Assembly: GCA_001661245.1 (NCBI GenBank)
Contig: KV454016.1
Span: forward strand, 227,868-291,867
Source: Pachysolen tannophilus NRRL Y-2460
Taxonomy: Eukaryota
Length of the DNA: 64,000 bases
Direction of reading: 5' to 3'
In this document: piece by piece, positions 9,231 to 56,361 of the stretch
Layout of the letters: each line of letters begins with the position of its first letter
How positions within the stretch are numbered: the first letter of the stretch is position 1
The notes under the pieces: generated by a model
What the model saw: the letters and a program-made list of their open reading frames with translations, nothing else
Databases searched by the model: none
What the model was told of the DNA's origin: nothing
Position numbers and translations under genes: made by a program

Positions 9231-10703
9231 TCATTTCCACACTGTTGAAAAAATGTAAAGATTATTTGTTGCTGCAATTGCGACACTATTTTCATTTGGA
9301 TGCCAACTGAGATGCAATATACTTTTTTTAAAATCTATGGTTTCAAAATCCATTTCTTTACGCATCATACTTAATCCACCATTTGGATTGACAGTCAAAT
9401 TATTATTTCTATTTTTCTTACTAGAACCGCTGTTACTATTACTTTGTTGTTTATTTTTATTTGATTTAAAAGCACTTTTATCTGCTTGTAATATAATTTC
9501 ATTATTCATCGAATCAATATTTGGATCAATAGCATTTGGATAAATCATAAAATTGTTATTATAAGAACCTGTCATTATTGATTTACTATCTCCAGAAAAT
9601 TGTACTTCAAATTTATCAAATATTGCATCATTTTCATAAGTATCACATAACCTATCTCTTAAATTTTCATGAATATTTATAGTTTTAATTGGTTCTCTTT
9701 CCATTGCAACATCCCAAATTTTCACTGTCATATAATCTCTAGAAACAATATATTTACCATTTGATGAAAATTCAACATCACTTATTGAAGAAGTAATTTC
9801 AGTGAAAAAATTATGATTTGAAGGATCCATATATTCTTCAAAAACTTTTGCATGTTGATCACATAAAGAATTTTCTCTCATATCTGATAATTTAATTGTT
9901 CCTTTTGAAGAAGAATACATAAATAAATTACAATCAATTGGATGAAATTCTGCACTTGTAATAACTTCTGTTAATTCTTCCATATTTGCAGGTTTTATAT
10001 CCACAATATTAAAAGATTGATCTGCAATACCTAAATTCCATAAATTTATTCTTAAATCATCAGATGAAATAAATGTTTCATCATCTGAATTAACACTTAT
10101 TGAATTGATATGATAAGCATGTGCATTGGCAAATATTCTTTTTGGTTGCAGAGCTATAATGGTATCATGTAATGTTAATCGTGGTAAATGTAAATTATTA
10201 ATTGAAAGTAAAGATTTTGCTGCATTTGCTGATGAAGAAGATGAAGAATTATTATTTCCAAATCCAAAATTACTATTAAATGTATTATTTGCAGCAGATG
10301 TTATATTTGAATCAGTTAAATTCAATTCACTAACCATCTTAATTTGTTTTTCAAAAACTTTCCATAACTTAATTGTCTTATCATTGGTAGATAATAAATA
10401 ATTTGAATAATTTGATCTTTTTAACCATTTAATTTTATTTATTTTTTCTTCAATTTCTAAAGATTTTAAATAATCAAATTCAGCATCATGACTTTGAAAT
10501 TCAGTATAAAATCTATATTCACAATTTTTTTTATTTTCATTTCTTTCAAATAATACTACTCTTCCACCTCTATCACCCGTTGCTAAAAAATCTCCTGTAT
10601 GATCAAATCCAACAGTTGAAATTATATCTGCTTCAGTTATATTCTCAATATCACCTTTGTCCCCAAAGCATTGGGAAAATTTCCAATTTTCAACATCTAC
10701 CAT
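9231..10703 (-). CDS. CDC55: PP2A B55 regulatory subunit
   Basis: Motifs [44 protein letters not shown] and [11 protein letters not shown]. Confidence 0.97.
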
Positions 10704-11283
10704 TATATATAAACCAACAATATACCAATACTATTTTAAAACCTCCTAATATATATATACATATACATATATATATATATATATTTTTTTTTCAAAAAAT
10801 CAATCTGTATAAATTATGCTTTCTCTTTCTAATCTAGTAATCTAATTAATATTAGAAAATAAAAAAAGTCTAAAATATAATATAATATATATATAATATA
10901 TATATATCATATATATATATATATTTTCTTTTTTCAATAAATTGATCTAAAATAATCAAACTTAATGATCGAATTTATCCTTATTATTGATTAATTGATT
11001 TAATTGATTAAAATAATAATTAAATAATGTAAATATTTAATTAAGATTATATCTAAGTTGTTTAGTTGTTTAGTTGTAAATCTCTGCTGGTTAATACTTT
11101 TCTCTCTCTTTTTTTTTTTTTTTTTTTCTTCTTCTTTCTTTCTTTTTTTGGTTTAATTCTCATCGCTCGCTCGCTCGTTCTCTCGCTCGTTGGGGGAAGC
11201 AAAGAAAAAAAAAGCAAAAAAAGTAAAAAAAGTAAAAAAAAATTGTGCAGGGTTCTTTGGGGTAAAAGAAAAATTAAAAAAAT

Positions 11284-14110: not shown

Positions 14111-15247
14111 ATGTCAATAACAAAGCCAAAAGTTTTATTTCTTGGTGATTTAAATGAAGATTTGATTGAGTATAAAGAATTTAAACAAAAATTTGATTGT
14201 ATTGTAAGTAATAATAATTAATTTTTAGTTAAGTTATTATATTAATTAAATAAACTAACTTTTCATTAGTTCACAACTTTGACTACTCGTGAACAACTTG
14301 TTAAAGATTTTCAAACAAAATATTCAAATATTCAAGCAATTTATGGTTCTTGGTTAGGTTTCCATTTAATTGGTGGGTTTAATAAAGAATTAATTGAAAA
14401 TGCTCCATTAAATTTAAAAATAATTACTGTTTGTTCTGTTGGTTATGATGGTTATGATATTGAATCAATGACAAATAAAGGTATTATCTTAACAAATACT
14501 CCTTCAATTGGTGCTGATCATGTAGCTGATACTGTATTATATTTTACATTATCAAGTTTTAGATTTTTCCAAAATTTTCAAAATGAATTAAAATTTACTA
14601 AAAATACAATTAAATCAAGAATTAAATTACAACAAAATAATCATTTAAATGAAAATAATTATGCTTTTGGTCATATTATTAATAAAAATTTTAAAATAAA
14701 TTCACCAAAAGATAAAAATGTTATAATTGTTGGTTTTGGTAATATTGGAATTAAAATTGCTAAAAGATTATTTAGTATTGGAATGAAAATTAATTATGTG
14801 AAAAGAAATAAACTTTCAAAATTACAAGAATTAAATTTAGGATTCCCAGTTAATTTTTTCCCTAATTTAAAAGAAGCAGCTCCAATTGCAGATTTAATAA
14901 TTTTAGCATTACCTGGTTCACCAGAAACAAGACATATGCTTAATAAAAATATAATAGATTTATTACCAACTAATAGTAGAATAATTAATGTTGGAAGAGG
15001 ATCAATTATTAATGAAAAAGATCTTATAGAAGCTTTAGAAAATGGGAAAATTTCATTTGCAGGATTAGACGTTTTCGAAAATGAACCACAAGTTCCTCAA
15101 CTGTTATTAAATAAAGAAAATGTAATATGTACTCCACATATTGCAGGTTCAACTGTAGAAAATTTTGATGAATCCGCTATTTATTGTTTAAAAAATATTG
15201 AAAATGTATTATTACAAGGTAAAAATCCTTCTTCTAAAGTTAATTAA
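14111..15247 (+). CDS. D-isomer 2-hydroxyacid dehydrogenase (glyoxylate reductase/YGL185C-like), paralogue 1; exons 14111-14203 and 14270-15247
   Basis: Motifs SVGYDGYD, GFGNIG, NVGRG, GLDVFENEP and TPHIAGST. The 66-nt intron (GTAAGT, AACTAAC, TAG) keeps frame and adds the N-terminal MSITKPKVLFLG. Confidence 0.9.
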
Positions 15248-15644: not shown

Positions 15645-17183
15645 ATGCTTCTCCAAGCAAAGATAATGCTGAGATTAAAAGTAAGAGGAACTAAGAAACC
15701 AATTAAATTTTTCAATTCATTTTTTGTGTTATCATGGAAAAAATTAAGACAAATTATTCTTGCTATTTGTTTATTATTAATGATAAGGTATCTTTATTCA
15801 TCAAGAGATGATAGTTTAAAACCTTTAACATTACCTAATTTTGAATCAAAGACATCAGTCATATATGATAAGAGTTCAATAAAATATATACCGCAAGAAG
15901 TTATTGAACATCTTTATAATGAAGTAATTGAGAATTCACTGGGTTTGAATTGGTCAAAGTATGCATATGTTCAATATGCTACATCAATAGATTACATGTG
16001 CAGTGCTTTAATAAATTTTGCTAAATTAAGAAGATTTAATACAAGAGCACAATTAGTATTATTATACAATGAATATTATAAATATGATAAAAAATTAGAA
16101 ACTCAAAAATCAAGAGAAGCTCAATTATTAGATAAATTTGCTAAAATATATAATGTTATACTTCGGCCTATAAGATTATTAAAATTTAAAAGTGAATCAA
16201 GTACTTGGGATACAAGTTTTACAAAATTTCAAATTTTTAAATTATTAGAATTTGATCGTATAATTTATTTTGATAGTGATTCTAAAATTGTTAATGGAAA
16301 TATGGATGAATTATTTTTTTTACCAGATGTTAAAGTTGCAATGCCAATATCTTATCATTTGGCTAGTCATTTTTATAATGAAAAAAATTTAGATGTACCT
16401 CAAAATTTTAAAGTCTTATCAAGAGAAGCAAAGGAAAATTTTAATAGAGACATTTATACTTCATTGAATGATAAAAAAAACAGTGGTCAATTTTCTATTT
16501 ATGATTATTCGCTGTTAATATATAATAATTTACCAAATATTTCAGAACATCAAGGTTTTATATGGTCAGATCATATAATGGTAATAAAACCTTCTGTGGA
16601 AATTTATAAAAGATTAATGAGATTAACAAAGGCAAAATCTAAAGATGAATATGATATGGATATTATTAATAAACTTTTCCAAATTGATAACATATTATCT
16701 AGGGATCATAATAAAGACTATATTCCTGATGCATTAGTGATTCCACACTTAAATTATGGTGTGTTAACAGGAGATTTAAGATCTGAAAATCATGATGTAC
16801 TTCTTGCAGAACCACAAGATTTACCCTATGTATCATCCTCAATTTTTCAAAAACGTATTTATGAAGACCCAGATTCGACTCCATATTTTGCTACAGATTT
16901 AAATTGGTCAGCATATGATTTTATGCTGAAAGTAAGATATATTCATTTTTCAGATCATCCAGTTCCAAAACCATGGAGAAAACAGTATTTAGAAGATAAA
17001 GTATATATAAAAGAAAAAATTTTATGTGCAGATGATACAAAGAGACTTAGCATCTATGAACATCTTCCAGATGATGCAAAACCTAGAATTGTTACAGATT
17101 GTGATAGCGCTGAAATTTGGAATAGTCTATATGAAGAATATGAAGAAGATAGATATGATATATGTGGATTGGAACTAAGATAA
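15645..17183 (+). CDS. GNT1: Glycosyltransferase family 8, Gnt1-like N-acetylglucosaminyltransferase (type II membrane protein)
   Basis: N-terminal transmembrane anchor; motifs YAYVQYAT...C.A.INF, SFTKFQIF...FDRIIYFDSDS (DxD), EYDMDIIN and YIHFSDHPVPKPW. Confidence 0.8.
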   Translation: MLLQAKIMLRLKVRGTKKPIKFFNSFFVLSWKKLRQIILAICLLLMIRYLYSSRDDSLKPLTLPNFESKTSVIYDKSSIKYIPQEVIEHLYNEVIENSLGLNWSKYAYVQYATSIDYMCSALINFAKLRRFNTRAQLVLLYNEYYKYDKKLETQKSREAQLLDKFAKIYNVILRPIRLLKFKSESSTWDTSFTKFQIFKLLEFDRIIYFDSDSKIVNGNMDELFFLPDVKVAMPISYHLASHFYNEKNLDVPQNFKVLSREAKENFNRDIYTSLNDKKNSGQFSIYDYSLLIYNNLPNISEHQGFIWSDHIMVIKPSVEIYKRLMRLTKAKSKDEYDMDIINKLFQIDNILSRDHNKDYIPDALVIPHLNYGVLTGDLRSENHDVLLAEPQDLPYVSSSIFQKRIYEDPDSTPYFATDLNWSAYDFMLKVRYIHFSDHPVPKPWRKQYLEDKVYIKEKILCADDTKRLSIYEHLPDDAKPRIVTDCDSAEIWNSLYEEYEEDRYDICGLELR

Positions 17184-20468: not shown

Positions 20469-21194
20469 CTATAAATCTTCTCTAGTGAATTTTCTAACAT
20501 CAAAAGGTTCTTTAGATATTAATACTTTTTGACCAGAAATAGGTTCACAACTTTTTCTTCCACTTACTGGACCTTTTTCAGTTTGTTTACCACTTTTAAG
20601 ATCATTTAATAACTTAACAACTTTCTCAGAATCCAAATCCTCATAATAATCATCATTAACACTCATCATTGGTCCATTGACACAGGCACCAAGACATTCA
20701 ACCTCTTGTAAAGTAAAGATCCCATCTTTAGTAGTTTCACCAGATTTAATTTCCAAGTGATCCGAGATGGATTTCATAACACTATTAGAACCACATAGTT
20801 GACAAGGTGTTGTAGTACAAACTTGTAAATGATATTTTCCAACTGGTTTCCTATTATACATGGTATAAAAAGTAGCAACCTCATAAACTCTCATTGGAGG
20901 CATATCTAAATATTTAGCAACATAGTTCATAACACTTATAGAAGTAAAACCCAGCTGTCTTTGACCTAAATCTAATAATGGCATAACCGCTGCTTTCTTA
21001 TATTGAGGTGGATAACGTCCTAAAATCTCTTTAGCCTTTACCAAATTTTGTTCATTGAATTCAAATGAAACATTTGGATTATTGACTTTAGTATCCCTAT
21101 GAACCGCAATAATATGACTGAAACGTTTATTAATAAAATTACCAAACAAGACAAAAGGCGTTTTGTTGGAAATTGATTTACAAGAAAACACCAT
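20469..21194 (-). CDS. Respiratory complex I 24-kDa subunit (NDUFV2/NUHM)
   Basis: Motifs [20 protein letters not shown] and [13 protein letters not shown], with 2Fe-2S cysteines in CTTTPC and ECLGACVN; first ATG at 21194. Confidence 0.95.
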
Positions 21195-22788: not shown

Positions 22789-23990
22789 ATGTCAGGTGGT
22801 AATGGAAAGAGTTATGCTATGGAGACTGAATTAGTTTTGGCTAATCATAAGGATTCATTTAATTCATCAATTGTACCGCTTTACCAATCTGCTACTTTTA
22901 AGCAACCTTCATTAGATGATATGGGAGAATATGATTATACAAGATCAGGGAATCCTACTAGAACTGTATTACAGACTCATTTGAGTAAAATCATGAAGGC
23001 AGAATATTCATTTGTTGTTACTTCTGGTATGACTGCATTAGATGTTATTTGTAAATTATTAGATGCAGGTGATGAAGTTATTGCAGGTGATGATTTATAT
23101 GGTGGTACTGATAGATTATTAACAAGTTTAAATAAAAAAAAATTTTAAAAGTATCACAATATGATACTACAAATACAAAATTAATTAAATCAAAAATTAC
23201 TAAAGAAACAAAAATGATTTTTTTAGAAAGTCCAACAAATCCTTTAATAAAAGTTGTTGATTTACAAAAAATTACAGATTATGCTCATGAAATTAATCCC
23301 GATTGTTTAGTTGTATTTGATAATACAATGATGTCACCAGTATTGTTGACACCTTTGGATTTAGGTGTTGATATTCATTATGAATCTGCTACAAAATATC
23401 TTAATGGACATCATGATTTAATGGCTGGTGTTATTGCAACAAATTCTAAAAAAATTGCAGATGATATTTATTTTGCCATCAATGCAACTGGTTCCGGATT
23501 ACTGCCATTTGATTCATGGTTATTATCTAGAGGTTTGAAAACTTTATCAATTAGAATATTACAACAACAACAAAATGCAATTAAAATAGCTGAATTTTTA
23601 TCAAAATTAGGTTTAAAAGTTAGGTACCCTGGATTAAAAGAACATCCACAATATGAATTACATAAATCTTATACAAAAGGTCCAGGTGCTGTATTATCTT
23701 TTGAAACAGGATCAATTGAAATTAGTGAAAAAATCGTTAGTAATTGTGATTTATTTGGAATCACCGTTTCATTTGGATGTATCAATTCTTTAATATCAAT
23801 GCCTTGTAGAATGTCTCATGCATCAATTGACCCACTGAAAAGATTAGAAAGAGGTTTCCCAGAAGATTTAATAAGATTATCTATTGGTATTGAAAACCTG
23901 GATGATCTAATCAGTGATTTAACTGATGCTTTGAAAATTGCTGGTGCCATCAAAGAAGTTGACGGTAACTTGATAAACCTTTTAAAATAA
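22789..23990 (+). CDS. STR3: Cystathionine beta-lyase, split by a frameshift at the A9 run 23134-23142
   Basis: The 5' part has PLYQSATFKQ, YDYTRSGNPTR and GDDLYGGT. The 3' part has LESPTNP, DNTMMSP, ESATKYLNGHHD (PLP lysine) and MSHASI. One extra nucleotide would join the frames. Confidence 0.88.
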
Positions 23991-24748: not shown

Positions 24749-26227
24749 ATGTCACAGACAAATAGTTCGCATAGTCATAACAGTAATATAATAGCAGGTC
24801 ATTTTAAGATAGATAAGAAGATTGGTGAAGGATCATTTGGGATTATATTTCAAGGGTATGATTTATCAAGAAATAATCAACCAGTTGCTATAAAATTTGA
24901 ATCTAGAAAATCTGAAGCTCCACAATTAAAAGATGAATTTAAAGCATATAAAATATTAAATTCAAGTATTAATAATATTTTAAGAAATAAAAATTCTTCT
25001 CAAATAGATCCTCATTTATCCATAGATGGAATTCCAAAAGTTTATTATTTTGGTCAAGAAGGTTATTATAATATTTTAATAATACAATTATTAGGACCTT
25101 CATTAGAAGATTTATTTGATTGGTGTAATAGAAAATTTTCTATAAAGACAGTAGCTCAAATTTCAAAACAAATGATTAGAAGAATTCAATTTGTTCATGA
25201 AAATGATTTAATTTACAGAGATATAAAACCTGATAATTTTCTTATTGGTATTGATTCAAATATAATTTATTTAGTTGATTTTGGAATGATAAAACAATAT
25301 AGAAATCCAGTAACAAAACAACATATTCCATATAGAGAAAGAAAATCATTAAGTGGTACTGCTCGTTATATGTCAATAAATACACATTTAGGTAGAGAAC
25401 AATCAAGAAGAGATGATTTAGAAAGTTTAGGTCATGTTTTTTTATATTTTTTAAAAGGTGAATTACCTTGGCAAGGTTTAAAACTGCCAACAAATAAACT
25501 TAAATATGAAAAAATTGGTGAAAAAAAACAATCAACACCAATTGAAGAATTATGTTATGGATTACCAACTCAATATCAAGATTATATGAAATATGTTAGA
25601 AATTTGAAATTTGAAGAAAAACCAGACTATGATCATTTATGTAATCTAATGGATGATGTATTAACTGATTCAGGTACTACTGATGATGGGTATTACGATT
25701 GGATGGATTTAAACGATGGTAAAGGATGGGACTGGAGTAAAAATAAGAAAATCAACTTGAATGGATATGGAAGTAATAATAATAATAATAATAATAATAA
25801 TGCAAATAATAACAATGCAAATAATAATAATAATAACAACAACAACAACAACAATAATAATAGTAATAAGCTGAATCAACGCCAGCAGACTAATGCCAAT
25901 ACAAATCAAACAACTAATACAATAAATCATTTAAGAAGAGCTTCTTCAAATGCTCAACAGAATAAGTATTATCTAAATTCCGGATTTTACCAAAATACTC
26001 CTAGAAATGGTAATAATAGCAATAATAATAATAATAATAATTCAAGAACTATTGGAGGAGCAGCACCTGGAGTAGGAGGACAACAGAGTGGAAATGATAC
26101 AAGACAGCAACAGTTACAGAGACTAGGATTGAGACCTGTAAATGATCACGGTGAAATATACGTTATTAATGATGATGAGGATAATAGCAAGAGTTGGTGG
26201 AAAAAGATTTTTTGTCTGTGTTGTTAA
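24749..26227 (+). CDS. YCK3: Casein kinase I, Yck3-like, with C-terminal palmitoylation cysteines
   Basis: Motifs KIGEGSFG, LLGPSLEDLF, YRDIKPDNF, SLSGTARYMS and NKLKYEKIG; ends CLCC; lies near DSE1-RSP5 as in S. cerevisiae. Confidence 0.85.
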   Translation: MSQTNSSHSHNSNIIAGHFKIDKKIGEGSFGIIFQGYDLSRNNQPVAIKFESRKSEAPQLKDEFKAYKILNSSINNILRNKNSSQIDPHLSIDGIPKVYYFGQEGYYNILIIQLLGPSLEDLFDWCNRKFSIKTVAQISKQMIRRIQFVHENDLIYRDIKPDNFLIGIDSNIIYLVDFGMIKQYRNPVTKQHIPYRERKSLSGTARYMSINTHLGREQSRRDDLESLGHVFLYFLKGELPWQGLKLPTNKLKYEKIGEKKQSTPIEELCYGLPTQYQDYMKYVRNLKFEEKPDYDHLCNLMDDVLTDSGTTDDGYYDWMDLNDGKGWDWSKNKKINLNGYGSNNNNNNNNNANNNNANNNNNNNNNNNNNNSNKLNQRQQTNANTNQTTNTINHLRRASSNAQQNKYYLNSGFYQNTPRNGNNSNNNNNNNSRTIGGAAPGVGGQQSGNDTRQQQLQRLGLRPVNDHGEIYVINDDEDNSKSWWKKIFCLCC

Positions 26228-26818: not shown

Positions 26819-27799
26819 ATGAGTAACGATAAACTTCAGCTAAATTCAAGATGTCTTGCTTATCATGGTCCATTATTATATGAAGCTAGAATTTTAAAAA
26901 TTCATGAACCGAATAAATCATTTGTTAATGTTTATAAGAACGATAGTCCTCAAACTTTGGAAGAAGCTCAGTTACCTAAGATAATGCATGATAGATATGG
27001 TTATTTTATTCATTATAAAGGTTGGAAGGCCACATGGGATGAATGGGTTGACCATTCAAGAATATTAACATATTCTTTTGAAAATATAAAATTACAAAAA
27101 GAATTAAAAGCTGCTGCTTTGCTGGCTTCAACTAATCAAGGACTGCTGATTTCTTCTTCTACATCATCAAAAAGATCTTTAGAAGAAGATTCTTCTTCTA
27201 ATGTACCTTCTACAAATAATAAGAAAAGTAAAAAAAATCAGGATACTACATTGGAAAGAGAAGATGAATTTATGAAAAGGCCAGAAATTTCAATAGTGAT
27301 CCCAGATAATTTGAAGTCTTCATTGGTAGATGATTGGGAGTTTATCACTAAAGAAAATCAGTTGGTCTCTTTACCACTGAAAGTAACCGTGAATGATATA
27401 CTAGTAAAATATCAACTGTTTAAAATAGGGAATAAGAAATCTATTCCTAATTCAGGTGTAATAAAGGAAATTATAGATGGACTAAAGCTTTATTTCAATA
27501 AATCTTTAGGTTCAATCTTATTATATAGATTTGAAAGACAACAATACTTGGATATACTTTCTTTAGAAGAAAATAAAGATAAAGAATTAGTGGATATATA
27601 CGGGGTTGAGCATTTATTAAGATTATTTGTTTCCTTACCGGGATTGATTGCACAGACTTCAATGGATCAACAGTCTATTGGAATATTAAAAGATTTTTTG
27701 GAAGATGTATTAAAATTTTTAGATAAGCATTACGATGAATTCTTCCAAAGACAATATGAAAATGTTACACCTGCTTATGATTCCTTGGTGAAGAATTAA
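26819..27799 (+). CDS. EAF3: Chromodomain/MRG protein Eaf3
   Basis: Motifs AYHGPLLYEARI, YFIHYKGWKATWDEWV, LVDDWEFITK, LLYRFERQQY and YGVEHLLRL. Confidence 0.96.
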   Translation: MSNDKLQLNSRCLAYHGPLLYEARILKIHEPNKSFVNVYKNDSPQTLEEAQLPKIMHDRYGYFIHYKGWKATWDEWVDHSRILTYSFENIKLQKELKAAALLASTNQGLLISSSTSSKRSLEEDSSSNVPSTNNKKSKKNQDTTLEREDEFMKRPEISIVIPDNLKSSLVDDWEFITKENQLVSLPLKVTVNDILVKYQLFKIGNKKSIPNSGVIKEIIDGLKLYFNKSLGSILLYRFERQQYLDILSLEENKDKELVDIYGVEHLLRLFVSLPGLIAQTSMDQQSIGILKDFLEDVLKFLDKHYDEFFQRQYENVTPAYDSLVKN

Positions 27800-34639: not shown

Positions 34640-34673
<34 letters not shown>

Positions 34674-35011
34674 NNNNNNNNNNNNNNNNNNNNNNNNNNN
34701 NNNNNNNNNNNNNNNNNNNNNNNNNNNNNNNNNNNNNNNNNNNNNNNNNNNNNNNNNNNNNNNNNNNNNNNNNNNNNNNNNNNNNNNNNNNNNNNNNNNN
34801 NNNNNNNNNNNNNNNNNNNNNNNNNNNNNNNNNNNNNNNNNNNNNNNNNNNNNNNNNNNNNNNNNNNNNNNNNNNNNNNNNNNNNNNNNNNNNNNNNNNN
34901 NNNNNNNNNNNNNNNNNNNNNNNNNNNNNNNNNNNNNNNNNNNNNNNNNNNNNNNNNNNNNNNNNNNNNNNNNNNNNNNNNNNNNNNNNNNNNNNNNNNN
35001 NNNNNNNNNNN
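34674..35011. other. Assembly gap (N run) flanked by poly-A
   Basis: N characters. Confidence 1.
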
Positions 35012-35054
<43 letters not shown>

Positions 35055-41959: not shown

Positions 41960-43987
41960 ATGCCAACAAAAGATTTAGATTTATTACTACGTGAAGGCGC
42001 TCTTCAACCTCCAAAAGGTTTTTTTGAAAGGCGTCCTCCAAATTCAAAACCTTTTTTAAAAAATTTTGATGAATATTTAAAGCTTTATAAACAAAGTATA
42101 GATGATCCAGAAAAATTTTTTTCACAAATGGCAATTGAAAATTTATCATGGTCAAAAAAATTTGATTATGGACGTTTACCAACAAATGAAAAAATTTTTA
42201 ATAAAGAAACTTGTGATGCTGCTGCATGGTTTGTTGGTGGTGAATTAAATGCTTGTTATAATTGTGTTGATCGTCATGCATTATTAAATCCAAATAAACC
42301 TGCTATAATTTATGAAGCTGATGAACCTAATGAAGGTTATATTTTAACTTTTGGTGAATTATTGAAAAAAATTTGTCAAGTTTCACAAATTTTAAAACAA
42401 TTGGGTGTTAAAAAAGGTGATACTGTTGCTGTTTATTTACCAATGATTCCAGAAGCAATCATTACTTTAATGGCAATTGTAAGAATTGGTGCAATTCATT
42501 CTGTAATTTTTGCTGGTTTTTCTTCAGCTTCATTAAGAGATCGAATTATTGATGCAAATTCAAAAATAGTTATAACTTCTGATGAAAGTAAAAGAGGTGG
42601 TAAAATTATTGAAACTAAAAAAATTGTTGATGAAGCTTTAAAACAATGTCCACTGGTTACAAATGTTTTAGTTTTTAAAAGAACAGGTAATTCACATATT
42701 CCATGGACTAAAGGTAGAGATTTATGGTGGCATGAAGAAATTAATAAATATATTCCTTATATTCCTCCAACTCTGGTTTCTTCAGAAGATCCTTTATTTT
42801 TATTATATACTTCAGGTTCAACAGGTAAACCAAAAGGTGTTCAACATAATACTGCTGGTTATTTATTAGGTGCACTATTAACTACAAAATATGTTTTTGA
42901 TGTTCATCCAGATGATATTCTTTTCACCGCTGGTGATGTTGGTTGGATTACTGGTCATTCATACGTTGTTTATGGCCCATTATTAAATGGTGCAACAACA
43001 GTGGTTTTTGAAGGTACCCCTGCATATCCAAATTATTCAAGATATTGGGAAATTGTTGATAAATATAAAGTTACACAATTTTATGTAGCACCAACTGCAT
43101 TACGTTTATTAAAAAGAGCAGGTTCAAAATATGTTGAAAATTATGATTTATCATCTTTAAGAACTTTAGGATCTGTTGGTGAACCAATTGCTCCAGAAGT
43201 TTGGGAATGGTATAATGAATTTGTTGGAAGAAATAATGCTCATATTTGTGATACTTATTGGCAAACTGAAACTGGTTCTCATATAATTGCACCTTTAGCA
43301 GGTATTACACCAACAAAAGCTGGTTCTGCTTCTTTCCCATTTTTCGGAATTGATCCAGTTATTGTTGATCCAGTTTCTGGTGAAGAATTAATAGGTAATG
43401 ATGTAGAAGGTGTATTATGTGTTAGAAATCCATGGCCTTCAATGGCAAGATCTATTTGGAATGATTATAATAGATTTTTGGATACTTATTTAAAACCTTT
43501 TAGAGGTTATTATTTTACAGGTGATGGTGCAGCTAGAGATAAAGATGGATTTTATTGGATCTTGGGTAGAGTTGATGATGTTGTTAACGTTAGTGGTCAT
43601 AGATTATCAACTGCAGAAATTGAAAGTGCCCTTATCGAACATCATTTAGTTGCTGAAAGTGCCGTTGTTGGTTTCCCAGATGAATTGACTGGTAGTGCAG
43701 TTGCTGCATTTGTAGCTTTGAAAGATAAATCTTTATACTCGGATGATGATAACGCTAATGATATTAAAAAACAATTAATCGTAACTGTTAGAAAAGAAAT
43801 TGGTCCATTTGCTGCACCAAAAATGATTTTATTGGTCAATGATTTACCAAAGACAAGATCAGGTAAAATCATGAGAAGAATCATGAGAAAAATATTGGCA
43901 GGAGAAGAAGATCAATTAGGAGACGTTTCAACATTATCTAATCCAGATGTCGTTCAACACTTGATTGATGTTGTTAAATCCAATTAA
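41960..43987 (+). CDS. ACS1: Acetyl-CoA synthetase
   Basis: Motifs [38 protein letters not shown] and [11 protein letters not shown]. The C-terminal [10 protein letters not shown] and the FLC2 neighbour favour ACS1. ATG at 41960. Confidence 0.93.
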
Positions 43988-44416: not shown

Positions 44417-47400
44417 ATGAATTTTGATAATAATAGTAGTTCTTTTATAACATCATTAGGCGATGATGAGTTAATAGAATTTATCAATAAGTTAAGTCAA
44501 GAAAAAAAATCCAAGCGTGGATTTAAATCACAAGACGATAATTTACAAGAAAGAGATCATGATCACTTGGAAGTCGAGACAGATGTTGATACAGAACTCG
44601 ATGATCATGAAGAGCTTGATGTTAACAAGATCTTCCCACCTTCAAGTCCATTAAAGCTGCCCTCTTCAGTTCCAATTCATCAAGATAAGAACAATAATAT
44701 TTCTGTTGTTGGAGAAAAAGAAGAAGAAGAAGAAGAAGAAGCTGGTTTAAAACCTCAAGATGGAATAGAATTAGAATTTGGTGATTATGCAACTTATTTT
44801 AAAGAGAAACAAAAGAAACAGCAAGAAGCTGATTATAATTATAAAGAATGGGATGCCAATAGAAGAAGAAAGCAATATAAGGAACAAATTGATTATCCTC
44901 AAATTTTTGTTAATTGTATTATACATGTAACTGGTAGAACTGAACCAGATATTACACAATTACATAAATTAATTGTATTACATGGTGGGAAATTCTTACA
45001 TTATTTGGGAGCAAAGGGAAATGCAACACATATAATTGCCGGTAAATTGACACCAAGAAAGAAATTGGAATTTGCAAAATATAAAGTTTTAAAACCTGAA
45101 TGGATTACTGAAAGTGTATCTTGTGGGAAATTATTACCCTGGATGGATTATACTTTAATTGATAATGATTATGGTCAAACAAAATTGAATTTCAATAGGA
45201 AAGCTCAAACTTTAGAGAAGAGTGATAATGCTGGGGAAAAAACAAGTAACGATGATGATGATGACGATGATGAATTTGGATTGGCTGCACTGTCACCAGA
45301 AGAAACTGACTTAACTCAAGACCCTATGGTAATTGAAAATAACGATAATCAACAGCAAATAGATGCTAAAAATCCAGATTTTTTGCAGATTTTTTTTGCT
45401 AAATCGAGATTACACCATTTGAGTACTTGGAAATCTGATTTAAGAGAAGAATTTTTCCAAAAAGCTTTAGCTAAACTTCGAGAAAGGAAATCAAATATTG
45501 TATCTTCTGCTTTTAAAAAATCTTCTTCTTCTAAAATTATTTTTCACATTGATTTTGATTGTTTTTTCGCAACTGTTTCGGCACTAAATCAACCTAATAT
45601 TGATCCAAGTAAACAGCCAATTTGTGTTACACATGGTGGTGGGAACGCAGATATTGCTAGCTGTAACTATGTCGCACGGAAATCTGGTGTTAAAAATGGA
45701 ATGTGGTTTAATTCTGCTAAAAAATTATGTCCAAATTTAATTCCTCTTGGTTATAAATTTGATGAGTATGATAGAATTTCTAAAATTTTTTATAAAAATT
45801 TATTGGATTTGGAACTTGATTCTGTCCTTCCTGTTTCTGTGGATGAAGCATTATTGGATGTTACCTCTTTATGTACTGGTGGTGATGATGATGATGAAAC
45901 TATAATTGAACAATCAGAGCGAGCAATGCAATTGGCAAAAAAAATTAAGAAAACTATATTTGAAGAAACTGATTGTTCTGTGAGTATAGGAATTGGTAGA
46001 AACGTCTTATTAGCAAAATTAGCCTTAAGAAGAGCAAAACCAGATGGTATTTTCCAAGTTTCAGATCCAATTCATGATTTTTTAGAAAATATTCCAGTAA
46101 AAGATTTACCAGGAGTTGGTTATAATATTGCTCAAAAATTACTGAAAGAATTTGGTGAAAATTCAGATTTTTCTATCGGTTCATTGAAGCAAATTGAAAA
46201 GCAAAAATTAATTAATATGTTTGGTATTAAAACAGGTACCCGATTATATGATTATGCAAGAGGAATCGATAAGACAAATATCGATATTTCATCAAACCCT
46301 CAGGATTTCCAAAGAAAGTCTGTATCTATCGATATAAATTGGGGGATAAGATTTGATAATATACAACAGGTTGATATGTTCTTGGTGAGCTGTGCAAAAG
46401 AGATGAACACTAGGTTAGCTAAGATTAACAAAAGTGGTTCTCAAATAATGTTGAAATTAGCAAGGAGGGCTCCAAATGCACCCATTGAACCTACAAAATA
46501 TCTTGGTATGGGTGATTGTGTTTTTTGTTCTAAGAGTGCAAGGTTTGGAATTGCTACAAGGGAAATTGGATTAATTTCTACGGAAAGTAAATCATTGTTT
46601 AGAATTTTAAATGTTCCTCCAACTGAATTGAGAGGGGTTTCAATTCAGATTACCAACTTAGTAGACGATAGTCTGACTTCAAGTCAAATGAAATTGCAGT
46701 TTAAAAAACTGGAAAAAACTCCATTTACTACAACGCGGAAGGAAAAAGACCAGGTTACAGATAATGTATCATCACCAGAAATCCAAAAAATTTCATCTAC
46801 ATCTTCTCAATATGATGTTCCAAATGATGTCCATAGTAGTCTTTTGAAAGAATTACCTGCTGATATCAGACAGAAAGTGGAAAATCAAAGGCAAAAGACC
46901 AAGCCAAAAATTTCCAACAATAACAGCAGTCTCAATTTCAATAATAATAATAATCATATCAATAGTCACGAAATAGACTGGGAAGTATTCAAAGAGTTGC
47001 CATTAGATATTCAAAATGAATTAAAGATAGAATTGAAAAGACGTGAAATACCGATTTTAGGAAAACCTGACACTCCTACTAAAAGAGACTATAGAACTTC
47101 TCCTTCAAAATTTCATCTTCAGCAAATTTTTCCTGAGAGTCCTGGTGAAAAAGCCAAGGTTGTTAGAGTTTTATCTCCTTCTCCAAGGAAAAAAAGGAAA
47201 ATTATAGCAGCAGACTCTGCTGCGTCTGGATCTATTGGAAACAATACTACGAAAATTAAACCTCCTCCACTTAATTTTGAGGAATTAAACGTTGATAAGG
47301 GATTTCTTGATGAATTGCCGCTGTCAGTAAGAAATGAAATTATAGCAGATTTTCAATATCAACAAGAGTTGAAATTTAAAAGACAAAAATTTCAAGAGAC

Positions 47401-47818
47401 AGAAGAAGAATTTCGAAAAATTCAAAAAAAATTGCAACAACCAAGATCTATTAGAATAACATCAGAATTATATACACAGTTACTAGGTACAAGAACAAAA
47501 CCACCACCTCGATTTCAATTTACATCATCGTTCACTAAAATTAAAGAATTAATCATCACCTGGATCAGGTCAACAATAAATGTTGGTCCACATGAGGATG
47601 ATTTTAACAAATTGATGGAATTTATCGTAGAATTGATCTCGACCAAGAATTTTACAAAAAGCATCAACATTTTAAAAATCATATTGGTCAATGTTCAAAT
47701 TGAAAAGAAAAATTGTGACAATTATAAAGGTTTTCAAGAATGGGAAAGCCGACTGCAAATGTTAAAAGAATTCATTACTACTGAATTTGAGAAACATAAT
47801 ATTATTTATGAGTTGTAA
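44417..47818 (+). CDS. REV1: Y-family translesion deoxycytidyl transferase
   Basis: Motifs FGDY..YF..K, a BRCT domain, N-digit SRLHHLSTWK, HIDFDCFF, SCNYVAR and SVDEA. Confidence 0.96.
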   Translation: MNFDNNSSSFITSLGDDELIEFINKLSQEKKSKRGFKSQDDNLQERDHDHLEVETDVDTELDDHEELDVNKIFPPSSPLKLPSSVPIHQDKNNNISVVGEKEEEEEEEAGLKPQDGIELEFGDYATYFKEKQKKQQEADYNYKEWDANRRRKQYKEQIDYPQIFVNCIIHVTGRTEPDITQLHKLIVLHGGKFLHYLGAKGNATHIIAGKLTPRKKLEFAKYKVLKPEWITESVSCGKLLPWMDYTLIDNDYGQTKLNFNRKAQTLEKSDNAGEKTSNDDDDDDDEFGLAALSPEETDLTQDPMVIENNDNQQQIDAKNPDFLQIFFAKSRLHHLSTWKSDLREEFFQKALAKLRERKSNIVSSAFKKSSSSKIIFHIDFDCFFATVSALNQPNIDPSKQPICVTHGGGNADIASCNYVARKSGVKNGMWFNSAKKLCPNLIPLGYKFDEYDRISKIFYKNLLDLELDSVLPVSVDEALLDVTSLCTGGDDDDETIIEQSERAMQLAKKIKKTIFEETDCSVSIGIGRNVLLAKLALRRAKPDGIFQVSDPIHDFLENIPVKDLPGVGYNIAQKLLKEFGENSDFSIGSLKQIEKQKLINMFGIKTGTRLYDYARGIDKTNIDISSNPQDFQRKSVSIDINWGIRFDNIQQVDMFLVSCAKEMNTRLAKINKSGSQIMLKLARRAPNAPIEPTKYLGMGDCVFCSKSARFGIATREIGLISTESKSLFRILNVPPTELRGVSIQITNLVDDSLTSSQMKLQFKKLEKTPFTTTRKEKDQVTDNVSSPEIQKISSTSSQYDVPNDVHSSLLKELPADIRQKVENQRQKTKPKISNNNSSLNFNNNNNHINSHEIDWEVFKELPLDIQNELKIELKRREIPILGKPDTPTKRDYRTSPSKFHLQQIFPESPGEKAKVVRVLSPSPRKKRKIIAADSAASGSIGNNTTKIKPPPLNFEELNVDKGFLDELPLSVRNEIIADFQYQQELKFKRQKFQETEEEFRKIQKKLQQPRSIRITSELYTQLLGTRTKPPPRFQFTSSFTKIKELIITWIRSTINVGPHEDDFNKLMEFIVELISTKNFTKSINILKIILVNVQIEKKNCDNYKGFQEWESRLQMLKEFITTEFEKHNIIYEL

Positions 47819-47990: not shown

Positions 47991-49499
47991 TTAAGCAACG
48001 ATAACACGTAAAGTATTGGTATGACCAAGACCTCTGGTCCAACCTTGAACAGTAACAATGACATCACCTTTACTCAAGATACCTAATTTGATTGCTTCAT
48101 TGACACCATACTTCAATCTATTTTCAACATCTTCTTGCCAGTTTTCCAGACGTTCTTGGTCATAGATAAATGGATATACACCACGGTACAAATGAGAATA
48201 ACATGCGGCAGTGTGAGATCTTGTAACCATTAAAATTGGACAATTTGGTCTGTATTTTGAGACAAATCTAGCTGTAGTACCAGAAGTTGATAAGACGACA
48301 ATAGCTTTAGCATCTTGATCGACTTGGGCGGAAACTGCAGCAACAGCAACGGTTTCAGTAGTTTCTGTTGGACGTGGAGTTAAATCCCTAATTTCATTAA
48401 AAGTTGAAGTATTTGGGAAAGCTTTTTCAGCTAATAAAGCAGTATGATGCATCATACTAACTGCTTCAATTGGGTAGTTACCCTTTGCAGTTTCACCTGA
48501 TAACATGACACAGTCAGCACCATCCAAGATAGCATTACCTACATCTGAAACTTCAGCTCTTGTTGGTCTTGGGTTATATGTCATAGATTCTAACATTTGA
48601 GTAGCACAAATAACTGGTTTACCTACCAAGTTACATTTTGCAATCAATTGTTTTTGAACAACGAAAACTTCTGGAGCTGGAATTTCAATACCTAAATCAC
48701 CTCTAGCAACCATAACACCATCAGTTTCTTTTAAAATTTCATCAAAATTGTTAACACCTTGTCTATTTTCAATTTTACAAATGATTTGAATATCTTTACC
48801 ATCTTCACCCAAGACTCTTCTTATATGTCTAACATCATCAGCAGTTCTAATGAATGATGCAAAGACCATATGAACACCATTCTTAACACCAAATCTTAAA
48901 TCAGCTTGATCTTTTTCAGATAAAGCTGGTAAATCAACATCAGTATTTGGTAAATTAACACCTTTATGAGAACAAATTTTACCAGCATTAATTGAAACAA
49001 CTTTTAAAGTTTTTGAATCAACAATTTCCAAAACTTCAAATGATAAAACACCATCATCAACATAAATAATCTTACCCTTTTCAATGACTTTAGTAATATT
49101 TTTATAATCAATATACATGATTCTATCATCAGATAATAAAGAATATTTGTCATCAGTGGTAAAAATCATTTCATGATTTGGAGGAATTGGATATTCCGCT
49201 TCATTTCTAGTAGTACCAGTTCTAATTTCTGGACCTTTTGTATCCAAAGCAATACCTAATGGACGACCTGAATATAATTCTTCGGATTTTCTTGCATTAT
49301 CAATAACAGATTGATGATATTCATATGAACCATGAGAAAAATTCATACGAACAATATTTAAACCAGCTTTTCTTAATTTTACCAACATCTCTGGTGAATT
49401 GGTTTTTGGACCAATAGTACCGATAATTGATGAACGACGATAATTTTTATCTGGAGTAGATGTAGCATCTAATGAAGTCAACCAAGCTAATTTAGACAT
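47991..49499 (-). CDS. CDC19: Pyruvate kinase
   Basis: Motifs [43 protein letters not shown] and MLSGETAKG. Confidence 0.98.
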
Positions 49500-50293: not shown

Positions 50294-51469
50294 AAAGACC
50301 CAAGAGGCGGTGGAGACTGTAAAAAAATACTGGTGAAAGAAGATGATAAAACTGTCTTAAAATTTAGAATATATAACCGTTGAACATCCACTAATTACTT
50401 ACTAGCTAGAACTTACCACTGACACTAACTAAGTAAGTAAAGTTCTTTACCCTCTACTGATTATGATCTTTTTCTTTTTTTCAGTTTATTTGCTTTGCTT
50501 TTTCATTCTTGATAATTACGTGAATTCTGCCTTTAATTTTTTTTATTTTATTTTTTTTTGCCTTTCTTTTTATGCAGACATCAGTTGCTGCCAATTGCTA
50601 TCAGGAAACAATAATTTTTTTTATTTTTTTTGGTGGAGTGAAGTGGAGTGCAATGAACTGTAGTGGACTGGTGTCCCTTTTACAAGATTTTTTTTGTTTT
50701 CGTTATTTTTCGGCTGATATAGTGGATTAAAAAATGGGCTTAAGTGGGTTTAAGCACATTAGGGTTTAGTGTATAGTAAAAAAAAAAAGGATATGTTGAT
50801 AGATAGATAAATAAATAAAGAATCTCGAACTTTTGCTAAATCGATAAGATAGGTTTGATTTGCTGATACGATCGAGATGAAAAAAAGTTTCCGAGGTTAA
50901 GTTTAATAAACTAGATAAAAATTTTTAACCATAGCATTCCCTTTTTTTTTTTTTTTTTTTTTGTTTATGTTATAAAGGAAAATGCACAAGACTCCCTTCT
51001 GTAGCCTCTTAAGAGTGAATGGCCCCAAATCAATCAATTAAACAATCAATCAATCTGGTTCTCAGATTCATAGATTGAAAGTTTAGGTGTTTTTTTTTTT
51101 TTCTTTTGTTTTCATCTATCGAAATGCAATCAGAGCTAATATATGCTGATGTAGTTTGAATGCGAGGCTAGCTAGTTGTCTATCTATCTATCTATCTATT
51201 TATCGGTCTCCAGGAGAGGTTGTTTTTTTTTTTTTAAAAAAAAAAAATTTTTGACGCTGTAGATCTTTCTTCCCATCTTGACGAATTTTTATCTTCTTTT
51301 TCCTCAATTTTAACAGTTATTAAAAAGGTTGCTATGGTTTATCCAATGCAACTTTCAATATTATAATTTTTTTTGCAACCAAAGCAGTGATGAAGTTATT
51401 ATAATGAGGCAATATCCGTGTGGATCAATTTCAATTTCAATTTCAATTTTTCTTTTTTTTTTTTTTTTT

Positions 51470-52328
51470 NNNNNNNNNNNNNNNNNNNNNNNNNNNNNNN
51501 NNNNNNNNNNNNNNNNNNNNNNNNNNNNNNNNNNNNNNNNNNNNNNNNNNNNNNNNNNNNNNNNNNNNNNNNNNNNNNNNNNNNNNNNNNNNNNNNNNNN
51601 NNNNNNNNNNNNNNNNNNNNNNNNNNNNNNNNNNNNNNNNNNNNNNNNNNNNNNNNNNNNNNNNNNNNNNNNNNNNNNNNNNNNNNNNNNNNNNNNNNNN
51701 NNNNNNNNNNNNNNNNNNNNNNNNNNNNNNNNNNNNNNNNNNNNNNNNNNNNNNNNNNNNNNNNNNNNNNNNNNNNNNNNNNNNNNNNNNNNNNNNNNNN
51801 NNNNNNNNNNNNNNNNNNNNNNNNNNNNNNNNNNNNNNNNNNNNNNNNNNNNNNNNNNNNNNNNNNNNNNNNNNNNNNNNNNNNNNNNNNNNNNNNNNNN
51901 NNNNNNNNNNNNNNNNNNNNNNNNNNNNNNNNNNNNNNNNNNNNNNNNNNNNNNNNNNNNNNNNNNNNNNNNNNNNNNNNNNNNNNNNNNNNNNNNNNNN
52001 NNNNNNNNNNNNNNNNNNNNNNNNNNNNNNNNNNNNNNNNNNNNNNNNNNNNNNNNNNNNNNNNNNNNNNNNNNNNNNNNNNNNNNNNNNNNNNNNNNNN
52101 NNNNNNNNNNNNNNNNNNNNNNNNNNNNNNNNNNNNNNNNNNNNNNNNNNNNNNNNNNNNNNNNNNNNNNNNNNNNNNNNNNNNNNNNNNNNNNNNNNNN
52201 NNNNNNNNNNNNNNNNNNNNNNNNNNNNNNNNNNNNNNNNNNNNNNNNNNNNNNNNNNNNNNNNNNNNNNNNNNNNNNNNNNNNNNNNNNNNNNNNNNNN
52301 NNNNNNNNNNNNNNNNNNNNNNNNNNNN
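51470..52328. other. Assembly gap (N run) flanked by poly-T
   Basis: N characters. Confidence 1.
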
Positions 52329-52600
52329 TGTTTTTTTTTTTTTTTGTTAAACTTGTAGTGTGTTTCTATGTATGTATTTAAAGTTCTCTAAAGTTAACCA
52401 TATCTTGTAAGAGTCAAAAAAAAAAAACCAAATTAAAAAAAAAAACGAGTGACAATTATTTAGCAAATTTAAAAAAAACAACGAACGAACGAATGATGAC
52501 TGAATGGATTTTTGCGGCAGTGCAGATTGAATTAAGTTCTTACTACTGTCCTGTCTACGATGCCACTTTGTTTAAAAAGATTAGACGGGACAAAGTCTTG

Positions 52601-52635: not shown

Positions 52636-54990
52636 AAAAAAAACATATCAATAGCGCTTTCCTTTTCTTTTACTTCTTTTATTACCGAGACCAGCAATTT
52701 AAACTGAGAAATATGTACAATTATTGTAGTGACAGATCTTATCTACAAATAATATGCACTTTAGAAAAGTGCAAATCGAGGTTTTGAACGTATGACCAAT
52801 GCCATCGCAATAATAAAAAAATAAAAAAAATAAAAAAATTTTTGGTTATGAGAAGAAAAGCAAACGAAAACAATACGAAAACATACGACAAATAACACAA
52901 TGGCATCACATAATGCAGCAATGATCAGATCACTCAATCATAGTTCAATTAAAACAATTGAACAATGGAAACAATCAATCATGAAATCACATGAATCTTA
53001 TCACACGTTGATTTATCGCATAATTTTTTTTTCATGTTTTTTCGTATTTTTTGTTTTTTTTTGCAAAAAAAAAAAAAAAAACTTCCCTCTTTACTTAATT
53101 ATACTAAGTAGCCAGAGTAACGGTCAAGTCCACACCCCAAAATCCAGAAACTTTGAAAACTCACCTACTTTATATATTGAGAAACTTCTTACAGAAATTA
53201 TATGTCACCAGTTTGAACGTGAAACAAAATAAAATAAAATAAAACTTTTTTTTTTTTTTTTTTTTTCATGCTAGTAGACGCATACTCTTACTTCGGGAAT
53301 AATAGCCGCATATATCGTAAGCTTCTGCATCTTTGTGCATATATCTGTCTACACAAATTTATAAAATTGCGTTTTATTTGCCTATGCTTAATCTTAACTT
53401 TATTTTGTCTTGAAAAAATTAAAAAAAATTAAAAAAAAAAAAAAAGTTTTATGCATGTCTGTATGTATTAAACGTGTGTGCTTTGTAAACTTGTTATAAA
53501 CTGTAAGCTGATGTACGTATATATGTACATGTATGTATAAATCTGTACGTGTGTATATATATATGTGCAATCAATCAATCAATCAAAAAACAAAAAAAAA
53601 AAAAAAAAAACGAACAAGACAATACAATACAATACGATGGGGGGGAGGGGCGTGATAAACAACTTTGAATTAAATTAACAGCATTAGACCTTGGCTTCTG
53701 ATAGGTTGGATCCGATTTTCCCTCAATTTTTGAACCTTTCTTCTACGCTTGCATCAAAAAATTAGTCTTCATAAAGAGAAAGAAAAAAAAAAAAGCAAAA
53801 AAAAGAAACGATTCTTCTTATCAAGAGTATTTGTTTGATTAGCTTTAACCAACTATTAACTACTTATTCTCTAAACAATAATAAAACAAAAATCAAAATT
53901 TCTCTTTAAAGTTTCAAAGTTGCTTTAATAAATTGATGCTTACGCAATATTACAGCAGATTTTAAGATCAAGTTTGATCTTAAAAATAAAATTAAAATTA
54001 AAACAAAAAATAATACTCAATCACTTGCTAAATTGATATACACCAACATCAACATACTATCAATTCTTTTTTTTTTTAAAAAAAATTTTTTTTCTTCTTC
54101 TTCTTCTTCCAATTCTTTATGATTTTTTAGTGAAAACGAAACGCCTAGATTAGCAAACATGGGGTCTGCCTACTAGTTGCATCATTTTCATGCAAAGATA
54201 TTATTTACAAAAGCACCGTAAAAGTAGATACGTAGATAGGTGATTTACGAATTTTCTCTCTCTCTCTTTTTTTTTTTGTTTTTTCGCTTTTTGCTTTTTT
54301 TCCCTTTTCCTGTTTTTTTTGTGAAATTTAGAGTTTTAACTATTTTATACTAATATTCGGATGTTATTCGTATTAAAATTGTGTATTATTTATATACTAC
54401 TATGGTTTTCACAACGGACTTGTAACTTTTTTTTTTTATTTTTTTTTCTTTCTTTTTCTTCTTCTTCTTCTTTTCTTTTCTTTTCTTTCCTGTATGTTCA
54501 TCCAATTCATTGAGTTATAAATACGATTGATTATCCAGCTTTTAGAATATAAAGTACCAAGAATTGTCAAGTTGTTTTTTTTTAAAAAAAATAAAAGATT
54601 TGTTTTTTTGTTCTTTGTATTTTTCTTTCTTTCTTGTTTTCGCTTTTGATTTTGCTTTTGAAAAAAAAAAACAAAAATTAACTCCTTTATCGCTCTTTAG
54701 GATAGCATTACAAGTTTAATTAGTTTTTTTAGCTTAAGATCTTTTTTTTTTTTTTTTTAATTTTTTGGTTAGGTTTTGATCGATATCTATCTTCCTGTCT
54801 AGAGTTTTGGGTCAAAAATAAAAGCAAAAAAAAAAAAAAAGAATTAATATTATTATTTAATTATTATTTTATTTTATTTTATTTTTATTTTTAGTGCTTT
54901 GGTTTTCCCTTTCTTTTCTATTTCTAGTAAAGCTAATAATTGCATTTTTTTTTTTTTCTTTTTCTTTTTCTTTTTTTTCTTGAAGATAAG

Positions 54991-56361
54991 ATGAACAATA
55001 TTAGTAAAAACAGCACAAGTTCACATCAGGACAATAATTTGTCATATCCAAATAGTCTTTCAAACCGACTACCAACTATAAGCCCAAGTGTGAATCAGAT
55101 CAATGGTTATTCATACCCAACGTATTCTCAACCAAGGACAAATGATTTGGGCAGTGCGGCTGCCCTTTCACAACAAGATCAACATCAACATCAGCACCAA
55201 CAACAACAACACCACTCAATGGATAGCTTGACACCTTCGATTTCGGTTTTACAGCCCTTAGGGTTGGCTTATCCTTCTCAGAAATTACAAGAACAACAAC
55301 ATCAACATCAGCAACAACAACAACAACAACAGATAGTACAGACACAACAAAGTGGGGAAATTCCTCAGATGAAGAAAAAACGTCCAAGAAGAAAATATAA
55401 TGAAATTGAAAGATTATATGCTTGTAAAGATTGTAAGAAGCTGTATGGTACTTTAAATCATTTAAATGCTCATATTTTAACTCAAAATCATGGTCCAAAG
55501 AGAAAATCTGAAGAATTTAGGGAATTAAGAGCAAAATGGAGAGAAGAAAGAAAACAAAGACAATATTTAATGAAAAAGCAAAAATTAGAAGAAAGTTTTA
55601 AAGAAGGGGTTAGTGATCATAGACAATTTGCAGATTTTAATTTAAAGGCTAAATCCCTCAGCACTTCAGAAATCCCACAACTGCAACTGCAACAACATCA
55701 ACAATTCAATTTCTCTCATGGCTCTGGAAATGGAATCTTACCAGGTGGAAGACAAACTCTTACAAGTAATTTGTATGACCCTTACTACCAATCCCACATG
55801 GACAATCAACAACCTTATCAAGATTATAGTGTTTCTCATCCTTATGGAAATAATTTTGCACTTGCACCACATCAGCAACAACCTCAACAGCAACAGCAGC
55901 AGCAACAACCTCAACAACAACTGCAACAACAACCACTGTCACAACTGCTGCTGCACCTGACACCACCACAACAACCACAACTGCTGCTGCTGCTGCTGCC
56001 GCAACAGCCACAACAACAACAGCAGCAGCAGCAGCAGCAACAACAACAACAACCGTATTATAATGATTCCTATAATTTGGTCTATCCTTATAATGTCCAG
56101 CCGCAAATGTACGCTCAACAAACTCGTAGCATTTTTGATAATGGTCAATTGGGGGCAAATGATAATGATAGTAATAAACAAGGTACAGGAGTCTCGAATT
56201 CAGTTCAAAATGGTGGTGGTTCTGCTGCTGGTAACAGTGCTACTTTCCTATATCCTGTTTATCCACAGGTTTCTTCTTCAAGCTATGCAAGTACAACACC
56301 TCAGCAGCAGCTGCAGGCATCACATACTCAATTACCTTATTATGGCTATCCAAATCAATAA
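54991..56361 (+). CDS. Single C2H2 zinc-finger transcription factor, Con7-like, with Q-rich regions
   Basis: KRPRRKYNEIERLY.C..C.K[CTG]YGTLNHLNAH...HG.KR..EEF.E.R..W matches the fungal Con7 domain; first ATG at 54991. Confidence 0.85.
   Translation: MNNISKNSTSSHQDNNLSYPNSLSNRLPTISPSVNQINGYSYPTYSQPRTNDLGSAAALSQQDQHQHQHQQQQHHSMDSLTPSISVLQPLGLAYPSQKLQEQQHQHQQQQQQQQIVQTQQSGEIPQMKKKRPRRKYNEIERLYACKDCKKLYGTLNHLNAHILTQNHGPKRKSEEFRELRAKWREERKQRQYLMKKQKLEESFKEGVSDHRQFADFNLKAKSLSTSEIPQLQLQQHQQFNFSHGSGNGILPGGRQTLTSNLYDPYYQSHMDNQQPYQDYSVSHPYGNNFALAPHQQQPQQQQQQQQPQQQLQQQPLSQLLLHLTPPQQPQLLLLLLPQQPQQQQQQQQQQQQQQPYYNDSYNLVYPYNVQPQMYAQQTRSIFDNGQLGANDNDSNKQGTGVSNSVQNGGGSAAGNSATFLYPVYPQVSSSSYASTTPQQQLQASHTQLPYYGYPNQ

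Follow-up and report, generated by a model that had tools for sequence, protein, structure and literature searches.

This analysis concerns how the codon CUG is read in a stretch of 64,000 nucleotides of DNA from the yeast Pachysolen tannophilus NRRL Y-2460 (contig KV454016.1), referred to throughout as the window. Budding-yeast nuclear genes of the ordinary kind lie across it. The Pfam scan identified the condensin gene BRN1, an Mpo1-like gene, CDC55 and a COX5B-type cytochrome oxidase subunit; three 2-hydroxyacid dehydrogenases, the 24-kDa subunit of complex I and an RNase H; the cystathionine beta-lyase STR3, a casein kinase I and EAF3; RSP5, an HMG-box protein, a dienelactone hydrolase and an FLC/TRP-like membrane protein; and an acetyl-CoA synthetase, REV1, pyruvate kinase and a SPP41-like protein. 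The window is AT-rich (GC 0.24-0.33 per 4 kb), and the 20 open reading frames (ORFs) examined contain 76 in-frame CTG codons, about 3-4 per ORF, many of them within poly-Gln or Gln-rich low-complexity tracts. A GC content of 24-33% with 76 CTG codons in 20 ORFs fits the published genome total of 16,824 CUG codons in 5,288 predicted proteins (PMC4937558).

Four of these genes were compared with public protein models:

44417..47818, plus strand: REV1 ORF with seven CTG codons, all alanine in the public protein P0001
22789..23987, plus strand: STR3 gene of model P0121, in two pieces (22789-23124 and 23154-23987), residue 113 being a split codon
38466..40853, minus strand: ORF of the FLC/TRP-like membrane protein (FLC) with four CTG codons, three of them in hydrophobic columns and alanine in P0241
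1010..3238, minus strand: main exon of BRN1 (condensin subunit 2), with five CTG codons in ORF 1010-2962, alanine in P0361

Alanine stands at all 18 of the CTG codons compared in these models (REV1 7/7, STR3 3/3, FLC 3/3 and BRN1 5/5). The public REV1, FLC and BRN1 proteins depart from a standard translation of the window at CTG codons alone, and the STR3 of the window is, barring alanine at its three CTG codons, PACTADRAFT_51029 [Pachysolen tannophilus NRRL Y-2460] (P0121). The next-best REV1 relatives are merely 42-44% identical to the window protein. The identity of the STR3 product, together with the NCBI taxonomy lineage of P. tannophilus (Pichiomycetes, Alaninales, Pachysolenaceae), places the window within the Alaninales, which comprise Pachysolen, Nakazawaea and Peterozyma, the genera given as members of the alanine clade in PMC5951914. 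The first-pass annotation, made from the letters of the window, had inferred a CUG-Ala clade yeast resembling P. tannophilus and using translation table 26, and had reserved novelty for an organism outside that clade. The species proves to be P. tannophilus itself, inside the clade; the CUG-Ala code is already known, and NCBI table 26 has this yeast as its type organism. We regard it as virtually certain that the window comes from the nucleus of P. tannophilus (NRRL Y-2460 or a strain indistinguishable from it), follows code 26 and has CUG read as alanine.

The public models themselves show some structural peculiarities. The FLC model (655 amino acids, 40826-38862) ends before the ORF does: the frame continues for about 130 codons to 38466, and this extension (38466-38861, minus strand) contains the fourth CTG. 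The BRN1 model P0361 (956 amino acids, 1013-4574, minus strand) joins Mpo1-like residues 1-183 (4574-4026) to the pieces 3461-3369 and 3238-1013. Because the Mpo1-like ORF terminates at its own stop (3987), P0361 looks like a chimera of the adjacent Mpo1-like and BRN1 genes, and the start of BRN1 probably lies within the 3461-3369 piece. The STR3 model omits about 26 bases (GT...AG; 23125-23153, plus strand) across a run of nine A (23134-23142). Homologues of STR3, for example P0122, hold ten extra residues exactly at the skipped stretch, and one extra A in the read-through would give a stretch of the same length that ends in the shared 'LKVSQYDTT'. Rather than a real intron, the skipped bases more likely reflect a frameshift or a homopolymer error of one base that the gene modeller bridged.

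The residues that homologues place opposite CTG were scored in a column test. REV1, STR3, FLC and BRN1 of the window were aligned with 119, 119, 119 and 149 homologues, respectively, and each query codon was scored against the residue profile of its own column in a Codetta-like manner, with CTG masked as X. Fifteen CTG sites had a residue in at least half of the homologues; REV1-81, FLC-695, BRN1-166 and BRN1-569 fell short of half and were excluded. Among control codons with at least five sites each, 47 of 48 were inferred as in the standard code, the exception being CGA (7 sites). No amino acid scored well for CTG: the values over the 15 sites were Ser +0.6, Ala -2.2, Ile -3.5, Val -5.9 and Leu -12.7. 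The columns occupied by CTG are unusually variable: their mean entropy is 2.62 bits, compared with 1.34 (Leu codons), 1.37 (Ala codons) and 1.99 (Ser codons). Relative to variable-column controls, the Ala score stood at 365 of 10,000 and the Ser score at 112 of 10,000.

These scores bear on the possibility that CUG is ordinary leucine and that CTG appears odd merely through its rarity in an AT-rich genome. In favor of leucine, the columns at REV1-1113, FLC-381 and NDUFV2-81 are either hydrophobic or of Leu type, and 87.3 of 554 conserved-column CTG sites in a published genome-wide matrix stand opposite Leu (PMC5951914). Against this, samples of 15 true Leu codons gave a mean of +21.7, and samples drawn from variable columns only gave +12.0; in each case none of 10,000 was as low as the -12.7 observed for CTG. 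The rare Leu codons CTA and CTC (3-4 sites) in the same genes still scored as Leu, and at each of the three STR3 CTG sites Leu is found in 0 of 119 orthologues. The CTG columns are non-leucine far beyond chance and leucine is firmly rejected; we put the chance of an ordinary leucine reading as vanishingly small.

The handling of CTG before alignment affected the outcome. When CTG was translated as Leu in a first pass, Ile ranked top (+2.9). The rank of Ile was artefactual and came from BRN1-7, which the aligner had shifted onto an Ile column (125 of 149); masking CTG as X moved the site to a column of S 38, T 26 and Q 17. A CTG translated as Leu prior to alignment is thus drawn onto hydrophobic columns. 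An origin of the aligned CTG sites from one-base neighbour codons was also considered but is unsupported by the window, L, V, M, P, Q or R being the commonest residue at 5 of 15 sites versus about 32% expected from background. Some of the homologues distort the counts: P0194, P0207, P0208, P0231 and P0332 have 6-9 Leu at columns that are at least 70% Ser (9 in P0194, 8 in P0332). They are probably CUG-Ser yeast genes translated by the standard code, and such proteins inflate the Leu counts in Ser columns and contaminate column studies of CTG. In P0122 and P0242, the closest relatives of STR3 and FLC, a single Leu stands in an Ala-conserved column and the Ser columns are free of Leu, the pattern that untranslated CUG-Ala relatives should give.

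Adding solved structures to the alignments brought the CTG sites compared with homologues to 23 of the 76 (15 in alignments and 8 via solved structures). Other codons outside this comparison lie in linkers or low-complexity sequence: EAF3 102, 109 and 110, casein kinase 375 and 490, RSP5 150, and all CTG codons of ORF 32-706, of the SPP41-like ORF and of the Gln-rich part of the zinc-finger ORF. At strict cut-offs, no solved structure matched the 2-hydroxyacid dehydrogenase or the dienelactone hydrolase. Sites singled out below are as follows:

10149..10151, minus strand: CDC55 (PP2A B55) codon 185, tiia[CTG]qpkr, ORF 9231-10703
25484..25486, plus strand: casein kinase I codon 246, wqglk[CTG]p, ORF 24749-26227
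27377..27379, plus strand: EAF3 codon 187, lp[CTG]kvtv, ORF 26819-27799
55441..55443, plus strand: C2H2 zinc-finger protein codon 151, ckk[CTG]ygtlnhlnah, ORF 54991-56361
23502..23504, plus strand: STR3-97, gl[CTG]pfdsw, ORF 23214-23990; column S 77, A 38, T 3, N 1 (119 orthologues)
23835..23837, plus strand: STR3-208, uncited by the first-pass annotation; column K 97, E 14, A 2 and others (119 orthologues); alanine in P0121
23898..23900, plus strand: STR3-229, ien[CTG]ddl; column V 34, I 30, C 22, A 17, P 8, S 5 and others (n=119)
20952..20954, minus strand: NDUFV2-81 of the complex I 24-kDa subunit (NDUFV2/NUHM), ORF 20469-21194; residues L, L, H, N, N
42653..42775, plus strand: acetyl-CoA synthetase (ACS) CTG residues 232 and 272, ORF 41960-43987; residues D/D/G and S/S/P in solved homologues
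48147..48149, minus strand: pyruvate kinase codon 451, ORF 47991-49499; residues V, L, Q, Q, Q; alanine under table 26
55981..55998, plus strand: CTG six times in succession (residues 331-336), Gln/Pro-rich region of ORF 54991-56361

Six of these codons, in CDC55, casein kinase I, EAF3, the zinc-finger protein and STR3 (97 and 229), had been the basis of the first-pass annotation, and all six lie in frame at the positions and in the contexts it had claimed. Its account of the homologue columns held only in part. For CDC55 the claimed alanine is present in human B55-alpha, the sole distinct protein among the matches listed, and for casein kinase I it is present in the best two chains among the matches listed. 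The gene had been labelled YCK3: it is a casein kinase I, but its closest solved structures are of Yck2 type rather than YCK3. At EAF3-187, two of the three solved homologues listed have the claimed Ala and the remaining one has Arg. For the zinc finger, where the sole matches in solved structures are unrelated generic C2H2 fingers, the column reads S, I, G. The STR3 columns had been described as small or Ala and never Leu; the absence of Leu among 119 orthologues bears out the latter at both sites, but STR3-229 is mostly neither small nor Ala. In solved structures, the STR3-97 column holds Ala in the Arabidopsis beta-lyase and Gly or Ser in paralogous enzymes. A preference of the columns for Ala over Ser, also claimed, is weaker than stated, since the 15-site column test does not separate the two. 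The six cited sites are a favourable subset and unrepresentative of the CTG codons of the window.

Two of the ORFs concerned have further CTG codons of note. Casein kinase I (24749-26227, plus strand) ends in Cys-[CTG]-Cys-Cys, with a CTG inside what is likely a palmitoylation tail. In the Gln/Pro-rich tract of the zinc-finger ORF, 78 bases (55921-55998, plus strand) contain 12 CTG codons. Translated by table 26 this patch is rich in Ala and includes a hexa-alanine, whereas the standard code makes it appear Leu-rich.

Across the 23 sites, Ala leads or forms the majority at four (REV1-765, CDC55, casein kinase and EAF3-187), Ser is commonest at five (REV1-753, REV1-969, STR3-97, BRN1-7 and ACS-272) and Leu at one (REV1-1113), the remaining sites being mixed, charged or hydrophobic. 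Among the eight sites known through solved structures alone, Ala is commonest at three.

Several of these observations weigh against alanine and are gathered here. The public translations of CTG as Ala are annotation and provide no independent biology, and the name of the organism comes from a single named match. Ser outscores Ala in the column test (+0.6 versus -2.2), and among its 15 sites Ala is the commonest residue at one, Ser at four and Leu at one. The four alignments contain 70 columns with at least 70% Ala and 65 Ser-conserved columns, and CTG occupies none of either kind. Individual sites depart from a simple Ala pattern: REV1-1113 is L 50, I 22, V 19; FLC-381 is F 47, L 44; FLC-541 is I 60 (I/V); FLC-642 is F/T/I; NDUFV2-81 is Leu in both yeast orthologues; the two acetyl-CoA synthetase columns are D/D/G and S/S/P; pyruvate kinase 451 is V, L or Q; and STR3-208 is Lys in 97 of 119. 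The tRNA scan and Rfam each returned zero tRNA genes or matches in this 64-kb window. Taken alone, the window leaves Ala and Ser unseparated. Most CTG codons of this organism fall in columns that are hydrophobic or poorly conserved, and for this reason a handful of columns suffices to reject Leu but not to tell Ala from Ser.

A rival reading is serine, the amino acid read at CUG in the Candida (Ser1) and Ascoidea/Saccharomycopsis (Ser2) clades. It has the top score in the test and leads the columns at STR3-97 (77 of 119), REV1-969 (48), REV1-753, BRN1-7 and ACS-272. It is also the amino acid to which a column-based study of 2014 assigned Pachysolen after finding no CUG of this species at conserved Leu positions (PMC4986446). 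The column test of the window reproduces the ambiguity of that study, whose mis-assignment arose from the same weakness of few columns and whose authors revised it themselves in 2016. The organism, being P. tannophilus, belongs neither to the Serinales nor to the Ascoidea/Saccharomycopsis clade, and the invariant-looking Ala columns of CDC55 and casein kinase I fit alanine.

Published peptide data decide between the two. Liquid chromatography-tandem mass spectrometry of strain NRRL Y-2460 yielded 907 CUG positions with full fragment support, of which 97.2% were Ala; non-Ala readings were as frequent as exceptions at the AUG control, and CUG was called unambiguous (PMC4937558). In a de novo peptide matrix, the ctg row has Ala 158, Val 1 and Trp 1 of 160, with zero Leu and zero Ser (PMC5951914, supplementary file 5). 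A matrix built by BLAST from columns more than 80% conserved, for which merely 554 of 20,511 CTG codons qualify, gives Ala 167.5 (30%), Leu 87.3 (16%), Pro 53.1, Gln 40.1, Lys 30.6 and Ser 23.8 (4%), and among the rows seen other codons match their own amino acid at 75-94% (PMC5951914). The window resembles this genome-wide matrix in the depletion of CTG from conserved columns and in its mixed profile. With Ala so far above Ser in both peptides and conserved columns, we consider a serine reading extremely improbable; the absence of Leu from the de novo matrix also counts against leucine.

A further possibility is dual decoding, in which CUG is mainly Ala with a meaningful minority of Leu or another amino acid at some sites, as in Ascoidea asiatica. 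That a good many CTG codons occupy Leu or hydrophobic columns would suit it, and a small fraction of CUG might be read as Leu by a near-cognate tRNA-Leu, with NDUFV2-81, REV1-1113 and FLC-381 as candidate sites; in that case alanine decoding would not be strict, but to a slight degree dual and dependent on the site. We judge dual decoding very unlikely, and near-cognate reading at these candidates just as doubtful. Non-Ala readings at CUG are about as frequent as exceptions at the unambiguous AUG (PMC4937558), the de novo matrix has no Leu among its 160 CUG readings (PMC5951914), and the tRNA is described as without the long variable arm needed by leucyl-tRNA synthetase (PMC4937558). An alternative account of the same columns is better supported: that the codons are young CUG-Ala codons. 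After Ala, the published matrix is led by Leu, Pro and Gln, all one-base neighbours of CTG, many CTG codons of the window interrupt poly-Gln tracts, and many have presumably arisen recently at tolerant sites. The 15 aligned sites show no enrichment of such neighbours.

The literature offers a mechanism for the alanine reading. The P. tannophilus tRNA(CAG) is reported to have A73, G3:U70 and G1GGC4, to lack a long variable arm and to cluster with alanine tRNAs (PMC4937558). On the published account, the ancestral tRNA-Leu(CAG) has been lost, and CUG is read by an alanine tRNA whose anticodon mutated to CAG and which keeps its alanine identity marks, namely the G3:U70 pair, A73 and the absence of a long variable arm. 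Alanyl-tRNA synthetase charges this tRNA-Ala with the CAG anticodon because the enzyme ignores the anticodon. This mechanism presumably applies to every CTG of the window. The data presented here directly support the organism, the public translation of CTG as Ala and the non-Leu nature of the CTG columns.

Other features of the window are independent of CUG decoding. Two runs of N, at 34674-35011 (338 bases) and 51470-52328 (859 bases), are spanned by ORFs 34598-35209 and 51404-52381, which are artefacts of those runs. The three 2-hydroxyacid dehydrogenase paralogues are clustered at 14468-15247 (plus strand), 17338-18444 (minus strand) and 18848-20323 (plus strand), and ORF 15645-17183, without a Pfam match, sits among them.

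The case shows that a rare reassignment of a nuclear sense codon was correctly recognised from raw sequence, and its value is that of a check only. In practice, translating the window requires table 26; otherwise Leu replaces Ala at the 76 codons of the 20 ORFs examined.

Comparison with known systems places the window as follows. With table 26 (Pachysolen, Nakazawaea and Peterozyma) it shares the organism itself and the translation of CTG as Ala in the public records of four of its genes; no difference was found, although the support for Ala from the window alone is weaker than that from genome-wide data. With the CUG-Ser1 code (table 12; Candida albicans and relatives) it shares the reassigned codon, an anticodon-mutated tRNA from the family of another amino acid and the absence of CTG from Leu-conserved columns. 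It differs in that the CUG-Ser1 amino acid is Ser, delivered by a tRNA-Ser(CAG) with partial Leu mischarging and found in another clade, whereas Pachysolen peptides carry Ala. The CUG-Ser2 clade, including the stochastic Ser/Leu decoding of Ascoidea asiatica (PMC6041473, PMC5951914), is similar in having few CTG codons in conserved genes and conflicting column signals; in Ascoidea a tRNA-Leu(CAG) can accompany tRNA-Ser(CAG), whereas for Pachysolen a single tRNA-Ala(CAG) and unambiguous decoding are reported.

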